From Acidobacteriaceae bacterium (GTDB lineage Bacteria > Acidobacteriota > Terriglobia > Terriglobales > Acidobacteriaceae): a stretch of 64,000 nt of DNA. The first letter of the stretch is position 1, and every line of letters begins with the position of its first letter. The notes under the pieces were generated by a model, which had not been told where the DNA came from, did not search any database, and worked only from the letters and a program-made list of their open reading frames with translations. Made by a program: the position numbers and the translations under genes. Shown one piece after another: positions 2,356 through 33,531 of this stretch. The DNA lies in the NCBI GenBank assembly GCA_027365415.1, contig DAHXNK010000001.1, forward strand, positions 6,142 to 70,141, read 5' to 3'.

Positions 2356-2390
2356 ACGGCAGAGATGCAACCAGCATTCTCTGACCCTGC

Positions 2391-2431
2391 CCATTCAAGC
2401 CTGCTTTTGGCTTGAGTGGACGGGCCTTTTT
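2391..2431 (+). terminator. REP-type hairpin followed by a T-tract (putative terminator after the hydrolase gene and recJ relic)
   Basis: ccattcaagcc-tgctttt-ggcttgagtgg is an 11-bp stem with one G:U pair. It is followed 7 nt later by TTTTTTATT. The same element occurs at 37884-37916. Confidence 0.5.
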
Positions 2432-2435
2432 TATT

Positions 2436-2493
2436 CCCAGGTCTCAAAAGCGAGACCCTTCGACAAACTCAGGGCAGGCTCTGGGGCACCCGG
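2436..2493. repeat. REP-like intergenic element (core ggtctc-aaaagc-gagacc ... ggggcacccgg)
   Basis: 6-bp perfect stem at 2440-2457 plus a conserved tail 'ctggggcacccgg'. A related copy lies at 12133-12166 (gtcgcaaaagcgagacacggggcacccgg). Confidence 0.6.
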
Positions 2494-2498
2494 CACGA

Positions 2499-2930
2499 TC
2501 ACTCTACAGGCGCGTTGGGTGCGATTTCCCAGACTTTGAATCTTTCATATAGTTCGACTCTAATTCGTTCCTTCGGTGAGAGGTCGGGGGTAAGAAGGGC
2601 AGGGGTGTCAAGCCCAAAGATGTCGGTATGCGCTCGATTATCTGGCAACCCCTCAACATTTTGGGTAGGCGAATGGATTACTGTCAATCCTCTGACTTCT
2701 CGAACCTGTCCAGCAATCATTTTTAGAACAGCAAACCGTTCTGGTCTGCCCTGCCTTGCGCGGGTCTCAGCAGCGGTGCTGTACTTTCCCCAATCGGTGG
2801 ACATTGACCCTTTGTTCTCGCTGAAAATTCCTGTTGGCGGCCGTAAATGATTAGGCCCCAGCCATCCTACTGGAACCCTATAAAACAGCGCGTCAGCATC
2901 AGGAATTTCTTCTACTGGCCAATCGTTCAT
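2499..2930 (-). CDS. orphan protein C of the three-gene cassette (143 aa from ATG 2930; 149 aa if TTG 2948 is used)
   Basis: ATG 2930-2928 overlaps the TGA of the upstream ORF by 1 nt (TGATG). G+C is low relative to the flanks. No recognisable domain. Contains the string 'GLPDNRAHTDIFG'. Confidence 0.65.
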   Translation of the reverse strand: MNDWPVEEIPDADALFYRVPVGWLGPNHLRPPTGIFSENKGSMSTDWGKYSTAAETRARQGRPERFAVLKMIAGQVREVRGLTVIHSPTQNVEGLPDNRAHTDIFGLDTPALLTPDLSPKERIRVELYERFKVWEIAPNAPVE

Positions 2931-3487
2931 CAATTGTTCACCAGCCAAGAAACGAGTTCAGCCCCGGCTTCAGAGGGTTCAAACCTTCCTGATATCTCGC
3001 TCTTGGCTTTCTTTCCGTAGTAATTTGCGATGTCTTCCGCTGCTGGGAAGTTGATTAGCAGCATTCGGCCGCCCTTCTCCCAGAAGAGGTCAATACTACC
3101 GTGGTCTGCTGGTCCAATTTTTGGTATTCCCATGCCCACTACGTTTGCCTTATGCGCATGGAGCATGAGTCTTCGGAGAAATCCTGTAGCGCGATCCAGC
3201 GTTTCTTTCGAGTAAGGCTCGAAATCTTCTACTTCCATGTCGTTTTCGATATTCAACACGAAATCTGCCGCCGCAATTTCCGTCTCCATTGCGCGCCGTT
3301 CTTCTTCAATTGCAGCCGCCGGAGACGTTAATGTGGTGGAATACGACTTAACCTCTTCATTTAATTCAGGACTTGTGAAACCCAACTGCTCGTTTTTACG
3401 AGTACGAGTACGAACCTCATACGGGGGCCTGAATTTTCGATGGTTTGAATAACTATCCAACGATCTTGTAAACACGCTGTGTGCCAT
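2930..3487 (-). CDS. orphan protein B of the three-gene cassette (185 aa)
   Basis: ATG 3487 is preceded by AGGAG in the 11-nt gap after the stop of ORF A. The N-terminal third is basic and low-complexity; the C-terminal part looks globular. No motif recognised. Confidence 0.65.
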   Translation of the reverse strand: MAHSVFTRSLDSYSNHRKFRPPYEVRTRTRKNEQLGFTSPELNEEVKSYSTTLTSPAAAIEEERRAMETEIAAADFVLNIENDMEVEDFEPYSKETLDRATGFLRRLMLHAHKANVVGMGIPKIGPADHGSIDLFWEKGGRMLLINFPAAEDIANYYGKKAKSEISGRFEPSEAGAELVSWLVNN

Positions 3488-3498
3488 GTGGATGTCTC

Positions 3499-4188
3499 CT
3501 ATTTTTCAGCAGCAGGTGTCAAGATAGGTGTATTGGAACTATCGGCGAATTCCCTGAGCGCTTTCTCTTTCTTTATGGCCCGAGCGATCACATCACCTGC
3601 TGATACAAGGTCTTCTGTGTCCAGCGCGAAATAGATCGTGTCAGTCTTGCCGTTGTGAGATGCACGAATTGCAAGCTGATGAACTATGACCCCGGCAGCG
3701 ACCTTCAAATCGTCTCCCGAACAGATCGGCCTTAGGTCTGTAATTACCTTCGCTGAACGAAAAGTCCTATCATTTGCTCGCAATAGGATGTTTCCCTTTG
3801 CGATCAGTTCCAAGCACTTTGATTTCGATAGTCTCGCAAGCCTGCCTCTCAGAATCTCCTCGTCTGAGTCTGAGAGTTCGACGACACGGTCGCTTTTAAT
3901 CTCTTCCACTACGGCCTGTACGATCACGTCAGTGTCAACCTGCCATGAATAGCCCGTTCCAGCGAGGCTAACGAGCGAGCTAACAATGTTGTCTAAGTCT
4001 GAAACTTCAGCTAAATCAGGCTCTTTGCGCAGATGCGAAATCAATGCCTGTCTGTCCAGGGTCGGCATTGCTTCACTGAGCGCGCGTTCCAAGCCAGCAA
4101 GGGCCGGGTCTGTCAGCTTTAACAGGCTAGCAAGGGTGCCCTGCTCATCGGCAGGTATTTCGATTGAGTTGATTCGAGTCGTAGTCAT
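3499..4188 (-). CDS. orphan protein A of the three-gene cassette (229 aa)
   Basis: First ORF of the cassette, with ATG at 4188-4186. The upstream leader (4189-4290) is AT-rich. No motif recognised. Confidence 0.65.
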   Translation of the reverse strand: MTTTRINSIEIPADEQGTLASLLKLTDPALAGLERALSEAMPTLDRQALISHLRKEPDLAEVSDLDNIVSSLVSLAGTGYSWQVDTDVIVQAVVEEIKSDRVVELSDSDEEILRGRLARLSKSKCLELIAKGNILLRANDRTFRSAKVITDLRPICSGDDLKVAAGVIVHQLAIRASHNGKTDTIYFALDTEDLVSAGDVIARAIKKEKALREFADSSNTPILTPAAEK

Positions 4189-4291
4189 CTTAGTGGTAGC
4201 GCTTAAAAACAGTTCAATACAACATCAATAATAATAAATTCTGAACTTCGATATCCAGCCGTCCTGCTGATTCATACTCTATCAGGCTGAG

Positions 4292-4325
4292 ACAGGCGGG
4301 TGCCAAACACTAAGCTCCCGCCTGT
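4292..4325 (-). terminator. stem-loop just downstream of recA (9-bp stem, no U-tract)
   Basis: acaggcggg (4292-4300) pairs with cccgcctgt (4317-4325) around a 16-nt loop. It starts 8 nt after the recA stop. On the minus strand it is not followed by a T run. Confidence 0.45.
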
Positions 4326-4333
4326 AATTTCAT

Positions 4334-5422
4334 TTACTTCTTTCCGGCTTTGACGACCTCTTGGGCGGTTGCGGCTCCGTTGGTTGGCACCGCTGGAATC
4401 TCCGCCACGTCGCCCTTGTTGGCGATGCCGAGCTTCTGGCGCAACTGACTTTCGACGCGGGCAAAGGTCTCCTTGTTGTCCTTGAAGTGCTGGCGCACAT
4501 TCTCGCGGCCTTGACCAATCCGCTCGCCGCTAAAGCTGTACCACGCGCCGGACTTTTCGACGATATTGTGCAGCACGGCCAGGTCGAGTACGTCGCCCTC
4601 GCGGGAGATGCCCTCGCCGTAGAGAATGTCAAACTCCGCCTCGCGGAAGGGCGCAGCCACCTTATTCTTGACGATCTTGACCTTGGTGCGCGAGCCAACG
4701 ATAACATCGCCCTCCTTGACCGCCCCGATGCGGCGAATGTCCACGCGCACGGAGGAATAAAACTTGAGCGCGCGACCGCCCGTGGTGGTTTCGGGATTGC
4801 CGAACATCACGCCAATCTTTTCGCGAATCTGATTGATAAAGATCAAGCTGGTGCGAGATTTTGAGACCGTTCCCGTCAGCTTACGCAGCGCCTGCGACAT
4901 CAGGCGGGCTTGCAGGCCCATGTGCGAATCGCCCATTTCGCCGTCGAGTTCCGCCTTGGGCACCAGCGCAGCGACCGAATCGACAACCAGCACATCAATC
5001 GCTCCGGAGCGCACCAGCGCTTCGGTAATCTCCAACGCCTGCTCGCCGTAATCGGGCTGCGAGATGAGCAGGTTGTCGATATCGACGCCCAGCTTGCGGG
5101 CGTAGATGGGATCGAGCGCGTGCTCGGCATCAACAAAAGCGGCCAAGCCGCCGGCCTTTTGCGCCTCGGCGATGACTTGCAGCGTAATGGTGGTTTTACC
5201 GGAGGATTCTGGGCCAAAAATCTCAATGACGCGGCCACGGGGCAGGCCGCCGACGCCGAGCGCGGCATCGAAGGAGATCGATCCGGTGGAAATTACCGCA
5301 ATGGGAACGATCGCCTCTTTGCTGCCAAGGCGCATGATCGACCCTTTGCCAAACTGCTTTTCAATCTGAGCCAGCGCCAGTTCTACTGCGCGGGAGCGTT
5401 CTTTATCGTCTGCCATTGTCAA
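4334..5422 (-). CDS. recA: recombinase RecA
   Basis: 362 aa. Walker A 'GPESSGKTT'. Canonical RecA N-terminus '[18 protein letters not shown]' and L1/L2 regions. Confidence 0.98.
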
Positions 5423-5664
5423 CTCCAGTCAACCAGTTGCCAGCACGCCGGAGGTGCGCGCGGGGTGGGGGATATGCTGCATACGTTGCGGAATTTCCAA
5501 GATGCTTCAGGCCGGATTCTACCATCCGGCGCAGTTGCATGGTGAAGACCCGCCCTCTTCTGCCGATACAGAGGTTTGGCAGTGTTGTATCACAATCACT
5601 GCGGGGACTGGAATCTGAATGTGTTGATTTCTGCAATCGAGCTGAAAATGGGAGCCTACACGCT

Positions 5665-7386
5665 ATGTCGCACTGGACGTTAAGTCGAAAAATTTTGTTG
5701 ATCTGCCTGCTGTTGGTGGCGCTCAATGCCACCATTGGCATCGCATCCTACCTGAGCACGCGACACACGCAGCAGGCCATTGGCGTGTTGGTGCATGATT
5801 CACTGCCGGGCCTGTATATGGCCGGGCAGATGCAATCCATCTCCAAGGATCAGAGCAATGCCATGCAACTGCACATCGACGTGGTAGATCCCGACGAGAT
5901 GGCGGATCAGGAGAACTTAATCGCCCAGGACAATGCCAGCATTATGCAACTGCGCGAGCAGTATCAGAAGCTGATCCCCGCAGATGCAAACACTCTGATA
6001 CAACTGGCTCTAAAACAGCAAGATCTGATGGCCGCGTGGAAGCAGACTCGCGCTCTAAGCGAGGCGGGCCGCAAGCTGGATGCGTGGGACATGTACAAAG
6101 CGCGCGTGCTGCCGATTGTCGGACAGCGCGAGGTTCTGGAGAGTACCTTGGCCAGCAGCAGTCGTCTGCGCGGCGAACGCTGGGCGCAGGATGCGCTGCG
6201 TGCCGTCCATTTCAGCCAGCGCCTGCTTATCCTGATCCTGGCCTTGATGTGTATCGCCGGGTTGGGAGTCTCCTTCTGGTTTGCATACTCCATCCGGCGC
6301 AGCCTACATCCGCTGGAGTACGCCATGGAGCGACTCGGCGAGGGCGACCTGTCGCATCGCGTCAAGATCACCAGCTCTGACGATTTGGGGCAGATGGGGA
6401 AAATCCTGAATCACTCCCTAGCGCGGATTGCACAGACTTTGTCCAGCGTTATCCACAGTTCGCGGCAGGTGCTGGAAAGCGCCGAAGGCATCGCCGCCAT
6501 CGCGCAGCAATCGGCCACCAGCACGGAGACGCAGAAGCACCAGACCGCGCAAATGGCCGCCACCATGCAGGAGATGGCTGCCACCATTCGCGAGATTCGC
6601 GACAGCTCCCACCGCGCCGCCGAGCGCACGCTGGAAGCAGGCGAAGTGGCTCGCAATGGCGGCCTCATCGTAGACGAGGCGATTCATGTAATCCGCTCCG
6701 TTGCTGAATATGCGCATGAAGCCGGAGACAAGCTCTCCAGCCTGAATGAGCGCTCCGGCCAGATCGGCCACATTACCAGCATGATTGAGGAGATCGCCAC
6801 GCAGACGAATTTGTTGGCGCTAAACGCGGCCATCGAAGCGGCGCGAGCAGGCGAACATGGCCGGGGATTTGCGGTGGTCGCCGCAGAGGTACGCAAGTTA
6901 GCCGAGCGCACCGCGCAGGCCACCAGAGAGATCGAGACGATGGTACAGGCCATTCAACAGGAGACGCGTATGGCCGCCACCGCTATGACTTCCAGTGAAG
7001 AAAAAGTGCAGTTGGGCGTGCTGAGCGCGCAGCGGGCGGGCGAATCGCTGATGAAGATCATCACCTCTGCCGAGCAGGTGCAGCACATGGTCAGCCAGAT
7101 TGCCACCGCCGCCACGCAGCAGACCAGCGCCACGGAGGAGATCAATCGCAACATGGATGCCATCGCCAACACTGTGGCCGAAACTGCCGAGGGCGCGCAT
7201 CTCTCTGCCACGGCCTGCCAAAGCCTCAATTCTCTGGCCCTGCAACTGGACCGGATGGTCTCGCAGTTCCGGTTGGAAGAAGCTCCTAGCAATCCTCCAG
7301 AACGCCAGCCCAAGCCTGAGACCGTCGCCACATCGGAACCCAAAGGAGTTTCAGCGCAGCCACGCATCTTTGCTTCCACCGCGTAG
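5665..7386 (+). CDS. methyl-accepting chemotaxis protein
   Basis: Signalling-hairpin motif '[36 protein letters not shown]', a HAMP region and an N-terminal TM helix. I prefer ATG 5665 (GGGAG about 10 nt upstream) over the 5416 ORF start, which overlaps recA. Confidence 0.9.
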
Positions 7387-7564
7387 GAATCTGTTCTTCC
7401 GCCAATCTCTGAATGCGTCTATGTTTTGAGCGGACACCCCAAAAGTTTTGCCTTGGAGAATATTTTTTCTTGCGCTTGGCTGAATCCGCCGCGTTCGCCA
7501 TCCTTTTTCCCGCCAATGCCGATATAATCAAAGATTCCAGCCATACAGAAGGAGTCGCAACTTC

Positions 7565-8503
7565 ATGCCCATTCAGACGACGAAACATATCTGGCACAAC
7601 GGAAAGCTCATCCCATGGGAGCAGGCCAACATCCATGTCATGTCGCATGTGATCCACTACGGGTCCTCCGTTTTTGAGGGAATCCGCTGTTACCAGACCG
7701 AGATCGGCGCGGCCATCTTCCGCCTGTCGGAGCACATGCAGCGCCTGCTCGATTCCGCCAAGATTTATCGCATGGAGCTGCCCTACACGCTGGAGCAACT
7801 GAATGCCGCCGTGGTCGATCTGGTGGAGGCCAACGGCGTTGCGCCCTGCTACATTCGTCCCATTGCGATTCGCGGCTATGGCGAGATTGGCGTCAGTCCG
7901 ATTGGCAGTCCCATCGAGGTCTACGTCGCCAATTTTCCGTGGGGAAAATATGTTGCGGGCGACGCTGCCGATGTCTGCATCTCGTCGTGGAATCGTTTGG
8001 CGCCGAACACCATGCCGTCGATGGCCAAGGCCGGCGCGAACTACATGAATTCGCAGTTGATTCGCATGGAAGCCGCTGCCAATGGCTACTCCGAGGGCAT
8101 TGCGCTCGACGTGAACGGCTACTTGTCAGAAGGCTCCGGCGAGAATCTCTTTATTGTGCGCGGCGGCATTCTGTACACCACGCCGCTGGCCGATTCGATT
8201 CTGTCGGGCATCACGCGGGACTCGGTGATTACGCTGGCCAGAGAGATGGGTTACACCATCGTCGAGCAATCGCTGCCACGCGAGATGATCTACATTGCCG
8301 ACGAGGTCTTCTTTACCGGGACGGCGGCAGAGGTCACTCCCATCCGCTCAGTGGATCGCATTCTGGTCAAGGACGGACAGGTTGGGCCAATTACCAAACA
8401 ACTGGCGACGGAGTTTTTCGGCATCACGTCCGGCAAGCGCCCTGACCGCTTTGGCTGGCTGACCCCGGTCAAGGTCAAGGCCACGGAGACCATCCCAGCG
8501 TAG
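7565..8503 (+). CDS. ilvE: branched-chain amino acid aminotransferase
   Basis: Class IV aminotransferase signatures 'HYGSSVFEGIRCY' and 'EGSGENLF'. GAAGGAG lies 9 nt upstream of the ATG. Confidence 0.93.
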   Translation: MPIQTTKHIWHNGKLIPWEQANIHVMSHVIHYGSSVFEGIRCYQTEIGAAIFRLSEHMQRLLDSAKIYRMELPYTLEQLNAAVVDLVEANGVAPCYIRPIAIRGYGEIGVSPIGSPIEVYVANFPWGKYVAGDAADVCISSWNRLAPNTMPSMAKAGANYMNSQLIRMEAAANGYSEGIALDVNGYLSEGSGENLFIVRGGILYTTPLADSILSGITRDSVITLAREMGYTIVEQSLPREMIYIADEVFFTGTAAEVTPIRSVDRILVKDGQVGPITKQLATEFFGITSGKRPDRFGWLTPVKVKATETIPA

Positions 8504-8566
8504 CGGTGTTGGATCGCCACGTTGCCGCTCCGCTGCTACGGCGAATCCATCGAAGTATAGGAACCT

Positions 8567-9502
8567 ATGAGCACGCACATCCATGAGACTGTAATCCTCG
8601 GCTCCGGTTGCGCCGGACTGACCGCTGCCATCTACGCCGCGCGCGCCAACCTGAAACCCATCGTGCTTGAAGGCCATGAGCCGGGCGGGCAGCTCTCCAT
8701 GACCACGCTGGTGGAAAATTTTCCCGGCTGGCCAGAGGGCATCCAAGGGCCGCAGTTGATCGAGAACATGAAGCAGCAGGCGGCGCGCTTTGGCGCGGAG
8801 TTTCGTCTGGCTCACCTGGCGAGTGTGGATTTGCAAAAGCGCCCCTTCGCTCTGAACCTGGGCAAGGAGACGCTGCACGCGCGCACATTGATTATCGCCA
8901 GCGGAGCCAGCGCGCGATGGTTAGGATTGCCCAGCGAAAAAGCTTTGATCGGCCACGGTGTCAGCAGTTGCGCCACCTGTGATGGCTTCTTTTTTAGCGG
9001 CAAGGAGATTGCCGTAATCGGCGGCGGCGACTCTGCGATGGAAGAGGCTATTTTTCTGACTCGCTTTGCCAGCAAGGTCACGCTGATTCATCGCCGCGAG
9101 CATTTTCGCGCATCCAAAATTATGCTGGATCGCGTGCTGGCGCATGAGAAGATTCGCGTCCTGACCAACATGGCGGTGGAGGAAGTGTTGGGCGTCGAGC
9201 AGAAAGAGGTCACGGGCCTAAAACTGCGCAACGTTGCCAATCAGGAGACGAGCGTGCTGCCCGTTAGCGCCATGTTTCTGGGCATCGGCCATGTGCCGAA
9301 TGCGAAGATGTTCGCCGACCAGATTGATCTGGACGACGACGGCTATGTGCGCACGCGTGACAATGTTTTTACCCGCGTGCCCGGTGTCTATGCTTGCGGA
9401 GACGTGCAGGATCGCCGCTATCGGCAGGCCATTACCGCTGCTGGCTCCGGTTGTATGGCCGCGCTGGAAGTGGAAAAGTTTCTCGAAGAGCACGGACGCT
9501 GA
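8567..9502 (+). CDS. trxB: thioredoxin-disulfide reductase
   Basis: FAD motif 'GSGCAG', redox-active 'CATCDG', NADPH motif 'GGGDSAMEEA'. Confidence 0.95.
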   Translation: MSTHIHETVILGSGCAGLTAAIYAARANLKPIVLEGHEPGGQLSMTTLVENFPGWPEGIQGPQLIENMKQQAARFGAEFRLAHLASVDLQKRPFALNLGKETLHARTLIIASGASARWLGLPSEKALIGHGVSSCATCDGFFFSGKEIAVIGGGDSAMEEAIFLTRFASKVTLIHRREHFRASKIMLDRVLAHEKIRVLTNMAVEEVLGVEQKEVTGLKLRNVANQETSVLPVSAMFLGIGHVPNAKMFADQIDLDDDGYVRTRDNVFTRVPGVYACGDVQDRRYRQAITAAGSGCMAALEVEKFLEEHGR

Positions 9503-9547
9503 ACGCGCTGTACGCAGACAAGTGCGGGAGAAAATCTAAAAACATCT

Positions 9548-10282
9548 ATGTCCATTGCTGGCAACCTTGCGCGTGTACAAGAGCAGATGCGCGCCGCCTG
9601 TCGTCGTGCCGGACGCCAACCAGAGAGCGTGCAGCTTATGGCCGTCTCGAAAATGCAGTCGCCGGAGCGCATCGTCGAAGCGTATGCCGCAGGGCTGCGA
9701 CTCTTCGGTGAAAATCGCGTGCAGGAGTTTGCGGAAAAGCAGCCTGCGCTGGCAGCGGCAGGAATGTTTACAGGCAGGGCGGCTGCTTCCTTTCATCTCA
9801 TTGGCCCATTGCAATCGAACAAAGCCGCGCGCGCAGCGCAACTCTTCGATGCTATAGATACCGTCGATTCTCTGCGGCTGGCTGAAAAACTGAACCAAAT
9901 CGCTGCCGCTGCTAATGCAACGCTGCCAGTTTTGCTGGAGATCAAACTAAGCGCGGAGACCTCCAAACACGGCCTGCTGCCGGAGAGCGCGGAATTGGCT
10001 CTGCTGCTGGAATGCGCCCCAGATTGGCCGCATCTGCAAGTGCGCGGCCTGATGACCGTTCCGCCATACTCGGAGAATCTCGAAGCGGTCAGGCCGTATT
10101 TTCGCCGCCTGCGCCAGTTGCGCGATGTGCTGACGCAGCAATATCCTCGCCTCGCGCTCGACCAGCTTTCGATGGGCATGTCGCATGATTTCCCCGTAGC
10201 CATCGAAGAAGGCTCGACCTGCACGCGCATCGGCACGGCCATTTTTGGCACGCGTCCGTCGTTGGATACGCGGCAGGAATGA
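9548..10282 (+). CDS. yggS: YggS-family pyridoxal-phosphate homeostasis protein
   Basis: 244 aa with an alanine-racemase N-terminal-like fold pattern and PLP lysine in 'LMAVSKMQ'. Stop overlaps the next gene (ATGA). Confidence 0.88.
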   Translation: MSIAGNLARVQEQMRAACRRAGRQPESVQLMAVSKMQSPERIVEAYAAGLRLFGENRVQEFAEKQPALAAAGMFTGRAAASFHLIGPLQSNKAARAAQLFDAIDTVDSLRLAEKLNQIAAAANATLPVLLEIKLSAETSKHGLLPESAELALLLECAPDWPHLQVRGLMTVPPYSENLEAVRPYFRRLRQLRDVLTQQYPRLALDQLSMGMSHDFPVAIEEGSTCTRIGTAIFGTRPSLDTRQE

Positions 10283-31731: not shown

Positions 31732-31744
31732 GCTGCATGAAAAC
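31732..31744. repeat. 13-bp direct repeat, left copy (GCTGCATGAAAAC)
   Basis: Identical 13-mer at 33571-33583. The two copies bracket the Mrr-like gene exactly; the left copy ends on the first base of its stop codon. Confidence 0.8.
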
Positions 31745-33531
31745 TATTCGATTGTTAATTTACTTAATAGTTTTGCTTCCTGTAAATCGATTTTCGCCTT
31801 GTGCCCATGCGCAGCGAGCAAGCCAAGAAGTTCATTCCCACTCAACAGGGTTAGCGGTTTCCCTTTGGCGAACTCGTAGGCATCCGGGCCATAGGTAGAC
31901 GTGGTGACAAGGATGCCCTTATTCGCCCCTTCGTTATGCACTGTGCCGAAAAGGTCACGTACCGCAGCTACTCCCACGACGTTGGTATACCGCTTGGCCT
32001 GAATGATGATCTTGCCACCACGAATCGGATCAGGATCAAAGGCGATTGCATCAACGCCACCATCGCGGCTGGCCTGTGTAATCTTGACCTCTCCACCGTT
32101 TTTGCTGAATTCCTTTTCAAATATTTCCCGAACCAAATTCTCAAAATCGACCCAATCCATTGCGGCCAGGTTGGTGCGATCATCCAGTGTTTCGGCTACG
32201 GCATACGAATCCACAAAACGAGGGTCTTCTTTGTTAATCGTTAAAATTGGGCGTATTGGGGCTAATTCTGTGAGTTTGCTGCTCGCTACGCCCTTGAGCT
32301 TGCGAAAACAGGCTTTGGGTTCTACTTGGCTCAGGTTGATCTGAAGAAATTCCTCGCGTTCAGCCTGTACGGAGAGTATGCAGCCGTGAGTCTCTATTCC
32401 TGTGGCCTTGTCAATGCTACGAACCCAACCGTTAAAAACGATGCTTTTCAATGTCTCTGACTCATCCGCAGCGAAAAGTTCGTGGAGCGTTCTGAGGGCA
32501 ACCTGATAGAGCACATCGTCATACGTGCGTTTCATCCACGCTTCAGACATGGGTACTTTTTGATGTTGATTGCGGGCGGCAATATATTTGACTTCTTTGA
32601 TTTTAGGAAGGGCTGATTGATTGGGAAGTTCAAAGTCCACAACCAAAACCCTATTGCTTTGATTGAAACTTACAGTGCTGTCTTGCGGGAAGTTGTCTGG
32701 ATATGACGAATGGTTTAAGACCTCGGAGCAGAAGAATTCCACGGCCTTAACATCGCCTTCAGTAAATTCGTTTTTCAATTGATCGATATGCGTGTGCTGT
32801 TCTTTTACGGTTGATTCATAGCATGCTCGATTTTTCTCCCATGCAGAAAGCTGTTTAGAGTACGCAGACATAGCTGCTTGAAAGCCTGTCTCGATAGAGG
32901 CGCAGTCCCTATTCCACTGGGTCAACGCGGACTGATAGGCCGTTTCAATGGACGCACAGTTTTTACTCCACTTTGCCAACTCAGATTGATAGGACGTTTC
33001 CAGTGACGCACAATTTTCTCTCCATTGCATCTTTGCAGATGCAAGATCGCTTGCAGCCTTCATTGCTTTTATACGGCGCATGCCAAGAAATGTATGAATA
33101 AAGGTAATAGCTGGAAGAAACTGACTCCCGTTTGGCTCTGGTGGCATAACGGGAACATCTGGTTTTAATGGAATTACAGAGATGCCTGGCTTTATGGGTT
33201 TTACGCCAGCCATAGGTTTTCGAGGATGGTTTTCACTGAAGGTTGTTTTATCTTTCAAGCAATCCCAGCCGAGAGGAGGCTGCTGAAGGCTTGATTTAAG
33301 GAGAGTTCCGAGCGCGGTCACATGTTCTTGTATTTCTTCTGTGAGGCTGCTGGCAGTCTCTTTGCCGAAAGATAATAAGTCTGTCTTTTTTTGCTTGACC
33401 AACAAAGAGTTCCAGCGCTCATCCCACTTTGCTAGCTGCAACCCAGCCTTAAGTTCTGCTTCTTTCTGGGTAGAACCTCGAACCACTCTATAAGCTCTCA
33501 ATCCTTTATGCTGAATTGTTACTTCCCACAT
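31744..33531 (-). CDS. restriction endonuclease (Mrr-cat, PD-(D/E)xK) domain protein with a large uncharacterised N-terminal region
   Basis: C-terminal 'ASRDGGVDAIAF...GGKIIIQAKRY...GILVTTSTYGPDAYEFA' fits the Mrr catalytic-domain pattern (D...D/E-x-K). No Mrr_N-type N-terminus. About 43-47% G+C by line counts. Confidence 0.85.
   Translation of the reverse strand: MWEVTIQHKGLRAYRVVRGSTQKEAELKAGLQLAKWDERWNSLLVKQKKTDLLSFGKETASSLTEEIQEHVTALGTLLKSSLQQPPLGWDCLKDKTTFSENHPRKPMAGVKPIKPGISVIPLKPDVPVMPPEPNGSQFLPAITFIHTFLGMRRIKAMKAASDLASAKMQWRENCASLETSYQSELAKWSKNCASIETAYQSALTQWNRDCASIETGFQAAMSAYSKQLSAWEKNRACYESTVKEQHTHIDQLKNEFTEGDVKAVEFFCSEVLNHSSYPDNFPQDSTVSFNQSNRVLVVDFELPNQSALPKIKEVKYIAARNQHQKVPMSEAWMKRTYDDVLYQVALRTLHELFAADESETLKSIVFNGWVRSIDKATGIETHGCILSVQAEREEFLQINLSQVEPKACFRKLKGVASSKLTELAPIRPILTINKEDPRFVDSYAVAETLDDRTNLAAMDWVDFENLVREIFEKEFSKNGGEVKITQASRDGGVDAIAFDPDPIRGGKIIIQAKRYTNVVGVAAVRDLFGTVHNEGANKGILVTTSTYGPDAYEFAKGKPLTLLSGNELLGLLAAHGHKAKIDLQEAKLLSKLTIE
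32883..33044 (-). repeat. three diverged 54-bp (18-aa) tandem repeats inside the Mrr-like ORF
   Basis: Protein repeats WRENCASLETSYQSELAK / WSKNCASIETAYQSALTQ / WNRDCASIETGFQAAMSA, followed by a degenerate WEKNRACYESTVKEQ. Confidence 0.8.

Follow-up and report, generated by a model that had tools for sequence, protein, structure and literature searches.

What kind of system is encoded by three small, tightly packed genes that lie beside recA in the genome of an Acidobacteriaceae bacterium, and what might a COMMD-like protein be doing among them? The window, by which we mean the whole stretch of 64,000 nucleotides (nt) analyzed here (contig DAHXNK010000001.1 of assembly GCA_027365415.1, forward-strand positions 6,142 to 70,141), carries the three genes, here called A, B, and C, as one minus-strand cassette, and a preliminary description of the same DNA had singled them out as a candidate for an undescribed defense- or toxin-antitoxin-like operon. 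The three open reading frames (ORFs) are present where that description had placed them, with products of 229, 185, and 143 amino acids (aa), and the existence of dozens of intact homologs for each of them indicates that A, B, and C are real genes. The sequence comparisons described below place A in the prokaryotic COMMD-like family, define B and C as two orphan families that form an obligate pair, and identify the first gene as the exchangeable part of the cassette. We read the whole, at a rough probability of 0.4 and hence tentatively, as a self-contained, horizontally mobile three-gene module that resembles toxin-antitoxin or abortive-defense systems.

The three genes are tightly coupled, as had been described earlier. 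The TAG stop codon of A is followed after 11 nt by the ATG of B, with an AGGAG motif overlapping the stop codon at a distance of 8 nt from this ATG, and the B stop and the C start have one base in common in a TGATG at 2932-2928. To see how far this arrangement extends, 80 diverse metagenome loci with a C-family gene were collected, and their ORFs were searched with hidden Markov models for A, B, and C. In a first count, B adjoined C in 60 of 63 loci, all three exceptions being artefacts of ORF calling; in 50 of 51 non-redundant loci with sufficient upstream sequence, C was directly preceded by a B-like gene, in most cases with an overlap. The position ahead of B is filled more variably. A COMMD-like gene stands there in 12 of 30 non-redundant loci (about 40%), and a TIGR04255 protein is encoded as the coupled first gene in three loci (L019, L032, and L054; NCBIfam E values of 1e-33 to 1e-39) and, to judge from 53% identity to the TIGR04255 partner in L032, is matched by the first-gene product of a fourth (L104); the remaining loci have another, uncharacterized first gene or nothing coupled to B. 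The conserved core is the obligate B-C pair, and its upstream partner is exchangeable, so that the earlier view of a single operon holds for the coupling of the three genes but has to be amended as to which of them are indispensable.

Where A is present, the arrangement is stable. The A-B-C order was kept in every long contig examined, and the triad persists even where A is only ~30% identical to the A of the window (L022 and L024; the triad is also kept in L018). The preliminary description had proposed co-occurrence in other genomes as a check, and the three genes do occur together widely; their retention at this level of divergence marks the triad as old by sequence comparison. The B-C linkage also takes the form of gene fusions, as two relatives (P0219 and P0256) join a B-like domain to a C-like domain in one protein (hhalign probabilities of 96-98%; E values of 3e-9 and 1e-13). 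Decayed copies were found as well, with C truncated beside an intact B in five loci and B split in two, a difference that lends the conflict reading given below weak support.

Gene A belongs to a family that has recently been characterized structurally. Searched alone against PDB sequences with phmmer, A matched the COMMD-like protein MBK5214510 (PDB 9q6a) with an E value of 1.1e-10, and the A-family profile (A2) matched the same entry with an E value of 2.4e-21 over nearly its full length, profile positions 10-213 aligning with residues 24-229 of the 240-aa chain across both the HN and the COMM regions. By similarity to this structurally validated member, A is a prokaryotic COMMD-like protein. 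The preliminary description had seen no recognizable signature in any of the three proteins, which no longer holds for A. Conserved motifs among the 55 A homologs include TDLRPI, HQLA, and LDxxD; A is present as a single copy in the window, and it had nothing significant in the Pfam, NCBIfam, PADLOC, and PHROG libraries. Prokaryotic COMMD-like proteins, described by Liu et al. (Nat Commun 2026; PDB 9q6a, 9q6c, and 9q6d; PMC13392464), combine a helical HN domain with a C-terminal COMM domain of three beta strands and a long helix, and MBK5214510 and others were shown to form homo-oligomeric rings of 8 or 10 subunits (PMC13392464). By homology, A should form such an octameric or decameric ring with its HN domains facing outward.

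In the same study, the prokaryotic proteins are described as likely ancestors of a eukaryotic signature complex, and their function in prokaryotes is stated to be unknown; the sole clue from genomic context is the presence of type VI secretion system (T6SS)-like genes (VgrG, PAAR, and DUF2169) near COMMD-like genes of Myxococcota, no conserved operon partners being reported outside that phylum (PMC13392464). A follow-up preprint again calls the functions of bacterial COMMD-like proteins unknown and describes how, in the eukaryotic Commander complex, the HN domains grip the N-terminal regions of CCDC22 and CCDC93 (10.64898/2026.02.02.703414). Neither text refers to an operon of the A-B-C type (PMC13392464; 10.64898/2026.02.02.703414), and the families of B and C do not figure in the study by Liu et al. 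(PMC13392464). A connection between the HN domain and B is suggested by one locus (L056:4258-4998), in which a 247-aa protein combines an HN-like domain, corresponding to residues 8-128 of A, with the B core, has no COMM domain, and is followed by C (hhalign probability of 93%; E value of 3e-7). In another locus (L046:3459-4238), a 259-aa protein coupled to B is collinear with A and has a C terminus that resembles a COMM motif (FYFQGTENDLDLL…AKKELQAL); the alignment was not significant (hhalign probability of 3%), and a highly diverged COMMD-like partner is one possible reading of this protein.

The AlphaFold2 (AF2) model of B is divided into an unstructured and a well-ordered part. Residues 1-53 have a predicted local distance difference test (pLDDT) score below 50 and are predicted to be disordered, residues 95-175 reach 85-94, and the overall layout would be a variable, disordered N-terminal region of ~55 aa, two helices, and a conserved beta-rich core of ~125 aa. 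The broad family consensus (DDWDxEGS...PGPxGSIDxxW...LLINxP...FYGDD...WL) consists mainly of structural residues. With start codons taken from the longest ORFs, the tail ahead of the core measures 43-106 aa where a COMMD-like partner is present and only 15-25 aa in several stand-alone B-C pairs, suggesting that tail length tracks the presence of this partner. A universal motif in the tail was sought and rejected, the motifs being clade specific.

The model of C is that of a compact alpha/beta protein (pLDDT of 90; predicted template modeling score [pTM] of 0.85). An exhaustive profile search showed the C family to be large, with 1,027 clusters at 50% identity at E values up to 1e-3 and 654 at ≤1e-10, most of them stand-alone proteins of 120-150 aa with uninformative names. 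S44, W47, and H101 are invariant across the family, and ≥90% of its sequences share R18, D46, Y50, H86, P88, and N98. This pattern of conserved polar residues is as expected of an active site and makes C enzyme-like; with Arg, Ser, Asp, and two His among the conserved residues, its activity may be directed at phosphoesters, nucleic acids, or nucleotides. Two more specific assignments were considered. An ADP-ribosyltransferase (ART), proposed from LFYR followed by GSxSTDW as counterparts of the R and STS motifs, was rejected, since there is no conserved catalytic Glu or Gln, position 103 varies, and there is no ART fold match; an HNH or His-Me-finger nuclease (H86-x-P, then N98-R-A-H101) is unproven, the spacing being non-canonical and without fold support.

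B and C are two orphan protein families by every comparison that was made, with no relatives in Pfam, NCBIfam, PADLOC, PHROG, or PDB. Searches of PDB by sequence, with narrow and broad profiles, returned only chance matches for either protein, and Foldseek found no significant relative for the B model in PDB or for the C model in PDB or BFVD (nothing below an E value of 0.06), the weak fold matches to "RNA 2'-phosphotransferase" and p32 not being usable. Lax Pfam scans of 51 B-family members and of 67 diverse C-family members converged on no shared family. The homology that could have overturned the earlier proposal, to a housekeeping pathway or to phage structural genes, was not found for the cassette. 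Gene C is omitted from some public gene calls (L107:4259-4834 and also L012; JGI annotation has a gap at C), and the exact 143-aa sequence turned up only in a Logan assembly. A second in-frame start, a TTG at 2948, is available for C, while its homologs begin at the ATG; C is probably under-annotated in public records or annotated from the TTG.

The cassette differs from its surroundings in all the long loci compared. Homologs come mostly from Acidobacteriaceae (e.g., Terracidiphilus and Granulicella) in peat and bog metagenomes, and close relatives of A were found in only five species-representative genomes, all Acidobacteriaceae. The flanks were different at each long locus examined: recA and an RcgR-like hydrolase gene in the present window and, elsewhere, NicO and lactate permease genes, rpoD and a kumamolisin-type peptidase gene, NT5C and CT398 genes, a region with a TIR-domain gene, or a Type ISP restriction enzyme gene in a locus with an IS256-type element between A and a shortened B. 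In 21 of 21 long loci, the module was poorer in G+C than its flanks, with a mean difference of 8.8 points. In the window, the cassette has a G+C content of 0.496 versus a window mean of 0.563 and 0.589 (about 0.59) on the recA side, and a scan of the 64-kb window found a value this low in only 2.4% of 1690-nt windows; the foreign composition noted earlier is thus upheld, both here and across loci. The differing flanks and the consistently low G+C content mark a discrete, horizontally moving cassette. The order found in the window, from the chemotaxis gene through recA and A-B-C to the hydrolase gene, was found again in an independent JGI sample.

Mobile elements adjoin the cassette in a few loci. 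In L003 to L006, at about 8700-10240, an IS256-family transposase gene (Transposase_mut) lies between A and a B shortened to 150 aa; beyond the insertion sequence, the B core and C are intact in L004, and unrelated genes take the place of B-C in L003. In L018, a TnpB/IS605 OrfB gene (6922-8532, minus strand; a Cas12f-like model matches too) is directly beside a full A-B-C triad, and split phage-integrase genes (6434-7462 and 8581-8967) lie beside the same triad.

We hypothesize that these features describe a conflict module, a reading drawn from the obligate B-C linkage, the B-C and A(HN)-B fusions, the homology of A to a ring-forming protein, the mobility of the cassette, and its foreign composition. 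In the mechanism we propose, C would be a small enzyme-like effector, and B, translated just ahead of C by way of the coupling, would use its beta-rich core to bind C and to hold or regulate it. The disordered N-terminal tail of B would dock the B-C unit onto the first-gene product, and the COMMD-like ring, as a multivalent scaffold or sensor, would decide on the release or activation of C; elsewhere, A gives way to TIGR04255 or other proteins, or B-C has no coupled first gene. In this model, we infer physical binding, for which the B-C fusions are indirect support, the activity and toxicity of C, and any trigger or phage connection. In a more far-reaching version, which strikes us as unlikely, B would dock onto the COMMD-like ring as the hub of a mobile conflict module: the peripheral HN domains would capture the disordered tail of B, and B would carry the effector C. 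Such a hub would suggest that Commander owes a core piece to a bacterial toxin-antitoxin or immune module.

A number of results weigh against the conflict reading, and several of them would suit a different explanation, in which A-B-C forms a non-toxic accessory enzyme complex. None of the three proteins is similar to a known toxin, antitoxin, or defense family in Pfam, NCBIfam, PADLOC, or PHROGs, PADLOC-DB v2 giving zero matches for A, B, and C at E values up to 1, and the module is almost missing from phage, plasmid, and viral collections, tblastn having drawn a blank in 50,697 phage and 72,556 plasmid records. Family scans revealed no HTH, RHH, or AbrB-type DNA-binding domain in B, such as most type II antitoxins have, and the suggestion that C is an enzyme comes from residue conservation, with no fold match beside it. 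The HN-B fusion occurs in one contig only, the trend in tail length is noisy since start codons were taken from the longest ORFs, and the asymmetry in decay (five truncated C genes versus two split B genes) is not significant, the cases being too few to weigh. Among 113 flanking proteins, no family recurs in more than two, and most neighbors are housekeeping genes; as to the defense-island setting that had been anticipated, defense or mobile-element neighbors are sporadic (Type ISP restriction enzyme, TIR, HicAB, Type II restriction-modification, and TnpB), and no defense gene recurs among these flanking proteins. In the accessory-complex explanation, the module would be niche-adaptive cargo built around a benign enzyme, C (e.g., for RNA, nucleotide, or small-molecule modification or repair). 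B would serve C as an obligate subunit without catalysis of its own or as a chaperone, and assembly would take place on the COMMD-like ring. The failure of toxin and defense models to match, the mainly metabolic or housekeeping neighbors, a B without an antitoxin-type DNA-binding domain, and the lack of a defense link for COMMD-like proteins (PMC13392464) would be at home here, and B-C fusions are no less usual for an enzyme and its subunit than for a fused toxin-antitoxin. Yet no co-occurring gene family defines a pathway, the sporadic distribution, the ever-different insertion site, and the consistently low G+C content are at odds with it, and the exchangeable first gene and the frequent truncations of C are less easily squared with metabolic cargo than with a selfish or conflict module. 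We regard an accessory complex as rather unlikely.

Two further explanations receive far less credence. The T6SS-like genes (VgrG, PAAR, and DUF2169) near Myxococcota COMMD-like genes (PMC13392464) would be in keeping with a secreted or contact-dependent effector-immunity pair, in which one of B and C would be secreted against other bacteria, the second would confer immunity to it, and the COMMD-like protein would be an adaptor for loading. The families shown for the 113 flanking proteins include no VgrG, Hcp, PAAR, Rhs, or LXG, nor do the annotated Acidobacteriaceae loci, and family scans detected no trafficking domain or signal feature in B or C. Typical effector-immunity pairs have the toxin gene first and the immunity gene second, whereas here the putative binding protein precedes the enzyme-like one. 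A Foldseek match of B to the immunity protein CdiI points the same way as the Myxococcota genes (probability of 0.6) but is not significant (E value of about 1) and was not usable for identifying B as CdiI-like; we consider this explanation very improbable. The remaining one, that the cassette is left over from a prophage or integrative element and that its genes serve the element rather than the host (e.g., in superinfection exclusion or anti-defense), draws on the integrase and TnpB genes adjoining the triad in L018, on one IMG/VR viral contig with a B-C pair, and on the low G+C content everywhere. That single viral contig compares with 193 confirmed metagenome matches of the same pattern, however, the phage and plasmid records had no match, most loci, the present window included, have no other mobile-element gene nearby, and a search of the flanks detected no direct or inverted repeats around the cassette; we consider a remnant quite improbable.

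If the conflict reading is set beside known systems, the homology tests for known toxin-antitoxin and defense families having failed, the likeness is one of organization only. Like type II and tripartite toxin-antitoxin systems, the cassette has small coupled genes, a non-enzymatic partner upstream of an enzyme-like one, and an optional third gene; B-C consists of two small, adjacent, co-directional, and coupled genes that stay together across loci, and it is sporadic, variable in location, and low in G+C content. In tripartite systems such as toxin-antitoxin-chaperone modules, a regulator or a SecB-like chaperone supplies the third component. Here, that component would instead be a putative ring scaffold, and the cassette also differs in having no homology to known toxins or antitoxins and no DNA-binding domain in B. 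The fused toxin-antitoxin CapRel(SJ46) offers a parallel to the relatives that join B-like and C-like domains, and such fusions would fit an auto-inhibited effector; domain order and folds are unrelated, and phage sensing is without support in the present case. TIGR04255 proteins stand where A stands, as first genes in tight coupling with B-C, and differ in showing no detectable relationship to COMMD-like proteins and in having no representative in the window.

Compared with the published COMMD-like proteins and with Commander, A is ~230 aa long and homologous over the HN and COMM regions, and its partner B starts with a tail that is predicted to be disordered; one contig has an HN-like domain fused to B. 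No homology links B to the CCDC proteins, A is part of a tight operon of a kind not mentioned for the published COMMD-like proteins, and its ring is so far a prediction. Searches of the literature on TIGR04255, on COMM together with anti-phage, and on COMMD together with toxin-antitoxin found nothing relevant. In searchable texts, this operon, its two orphan families, and the association of a COMMD-like protein with a two-gene effector-like pair appear to be undescribed. One COMMD-like lineage is hard-wired to two partners through gene order and fusions, so that the role of bacterial COMMD-like proteins becomes testable, and B and C become a candidate new effector-keeper pair whose C family alone exceeds 1,000 clusters (50% identity). 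If the docking-hub version were true, it would provide a first function for prokaryotic COMMD-like proteins, following the same logic of a scaffold and a threaded adaptor as the eukaryotic COMMD ring with CCDC22 and CCDC93, together with two new families, C possibly with a new effector fold; the module may reveal an ancestral scaffold-adaptor role of COMMD rings. A true conflict module would trace another piece of eukaryotic cell-biology machinery to bacterial conflict systems.

The features of the locus are collected in the following table.

Features of the A-B-C cassette and its surroundings in the window
Feature	Coordinates	Strand	Length	Remarks
Gene A	3499-4188	minus	229 aa	COMMD-like protein
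Gene B	2930-3487	minus	185 aa	Orphan family; proposed adaptor or neutralizer
Gene C	2499-2930	minus	143 aa	Orphan family; proposed effector
Promoter-like TGGATA-18-TATTAT	4228..4257	minus		AT-rich leader 5' of A; candidate from a consensus scan alone, no evidence of function
AGGAG ribosome-binding site for B	3496..3500	minus		Read directly from the sequence
Two stem-loops, likely 3' end of the operon	2380..2498	minus		Downstream of C; RNA fold of -50.2 kcal/mol, z = -2.9
Stem and T-run	2409-2426			Terminator-like site; reads as a terminator for the convergent plus-strand hydrolase gene
recA	4334-5422			Terminator hairpin at 4292-4325
Alpha/beta hydrolase, convergent with the cassette	879-2183	plus		RcgR-family-like; NCBIfam E value of 1.6e-42
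Methyl-accepting chemotaxis protein, far side of recA	5416-7386	plus		Pfam matches on the identical gene in L107

The preliminary description had also placed the cassette in a rearrangement scar, with a recJ relic and REP hairpins on one side and the recA hairpin on the other. The recA hairpin is there; a RecJ/DHH signal was absent from every ORF in 2039-2850, and the hairpin sequences at 2380-2500, which fold well, occur once each in the window, so that nothing identifies them as REP elements. With both marks unsupported and no repeats in the flanks, the scar setting is not borne out.

The two outer neighbors of the cassette could be partly characterized. The hydrolase resembles putative quorum-lactone hydrolases, scoring 145.8 bits against a cutoff of 182, with a weak Pfam ABHD18 match, and the L107 gene identical to that of the chemotaxis protein bears 4HB_MCP_1, HAMP, and MCPsignal Pfam matches. 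Elsewhere in the window, the lowest G+C content, down to 0.457, is reached at 31744-33531 on the minus strand, where a 595-aa ORF that had no match when searched with phmmer against PDB has a C terminus that, read by eye alone, looks like that of an Mrr-type restriction endonuclease (DGGVDAIA and IIIQAKRY).

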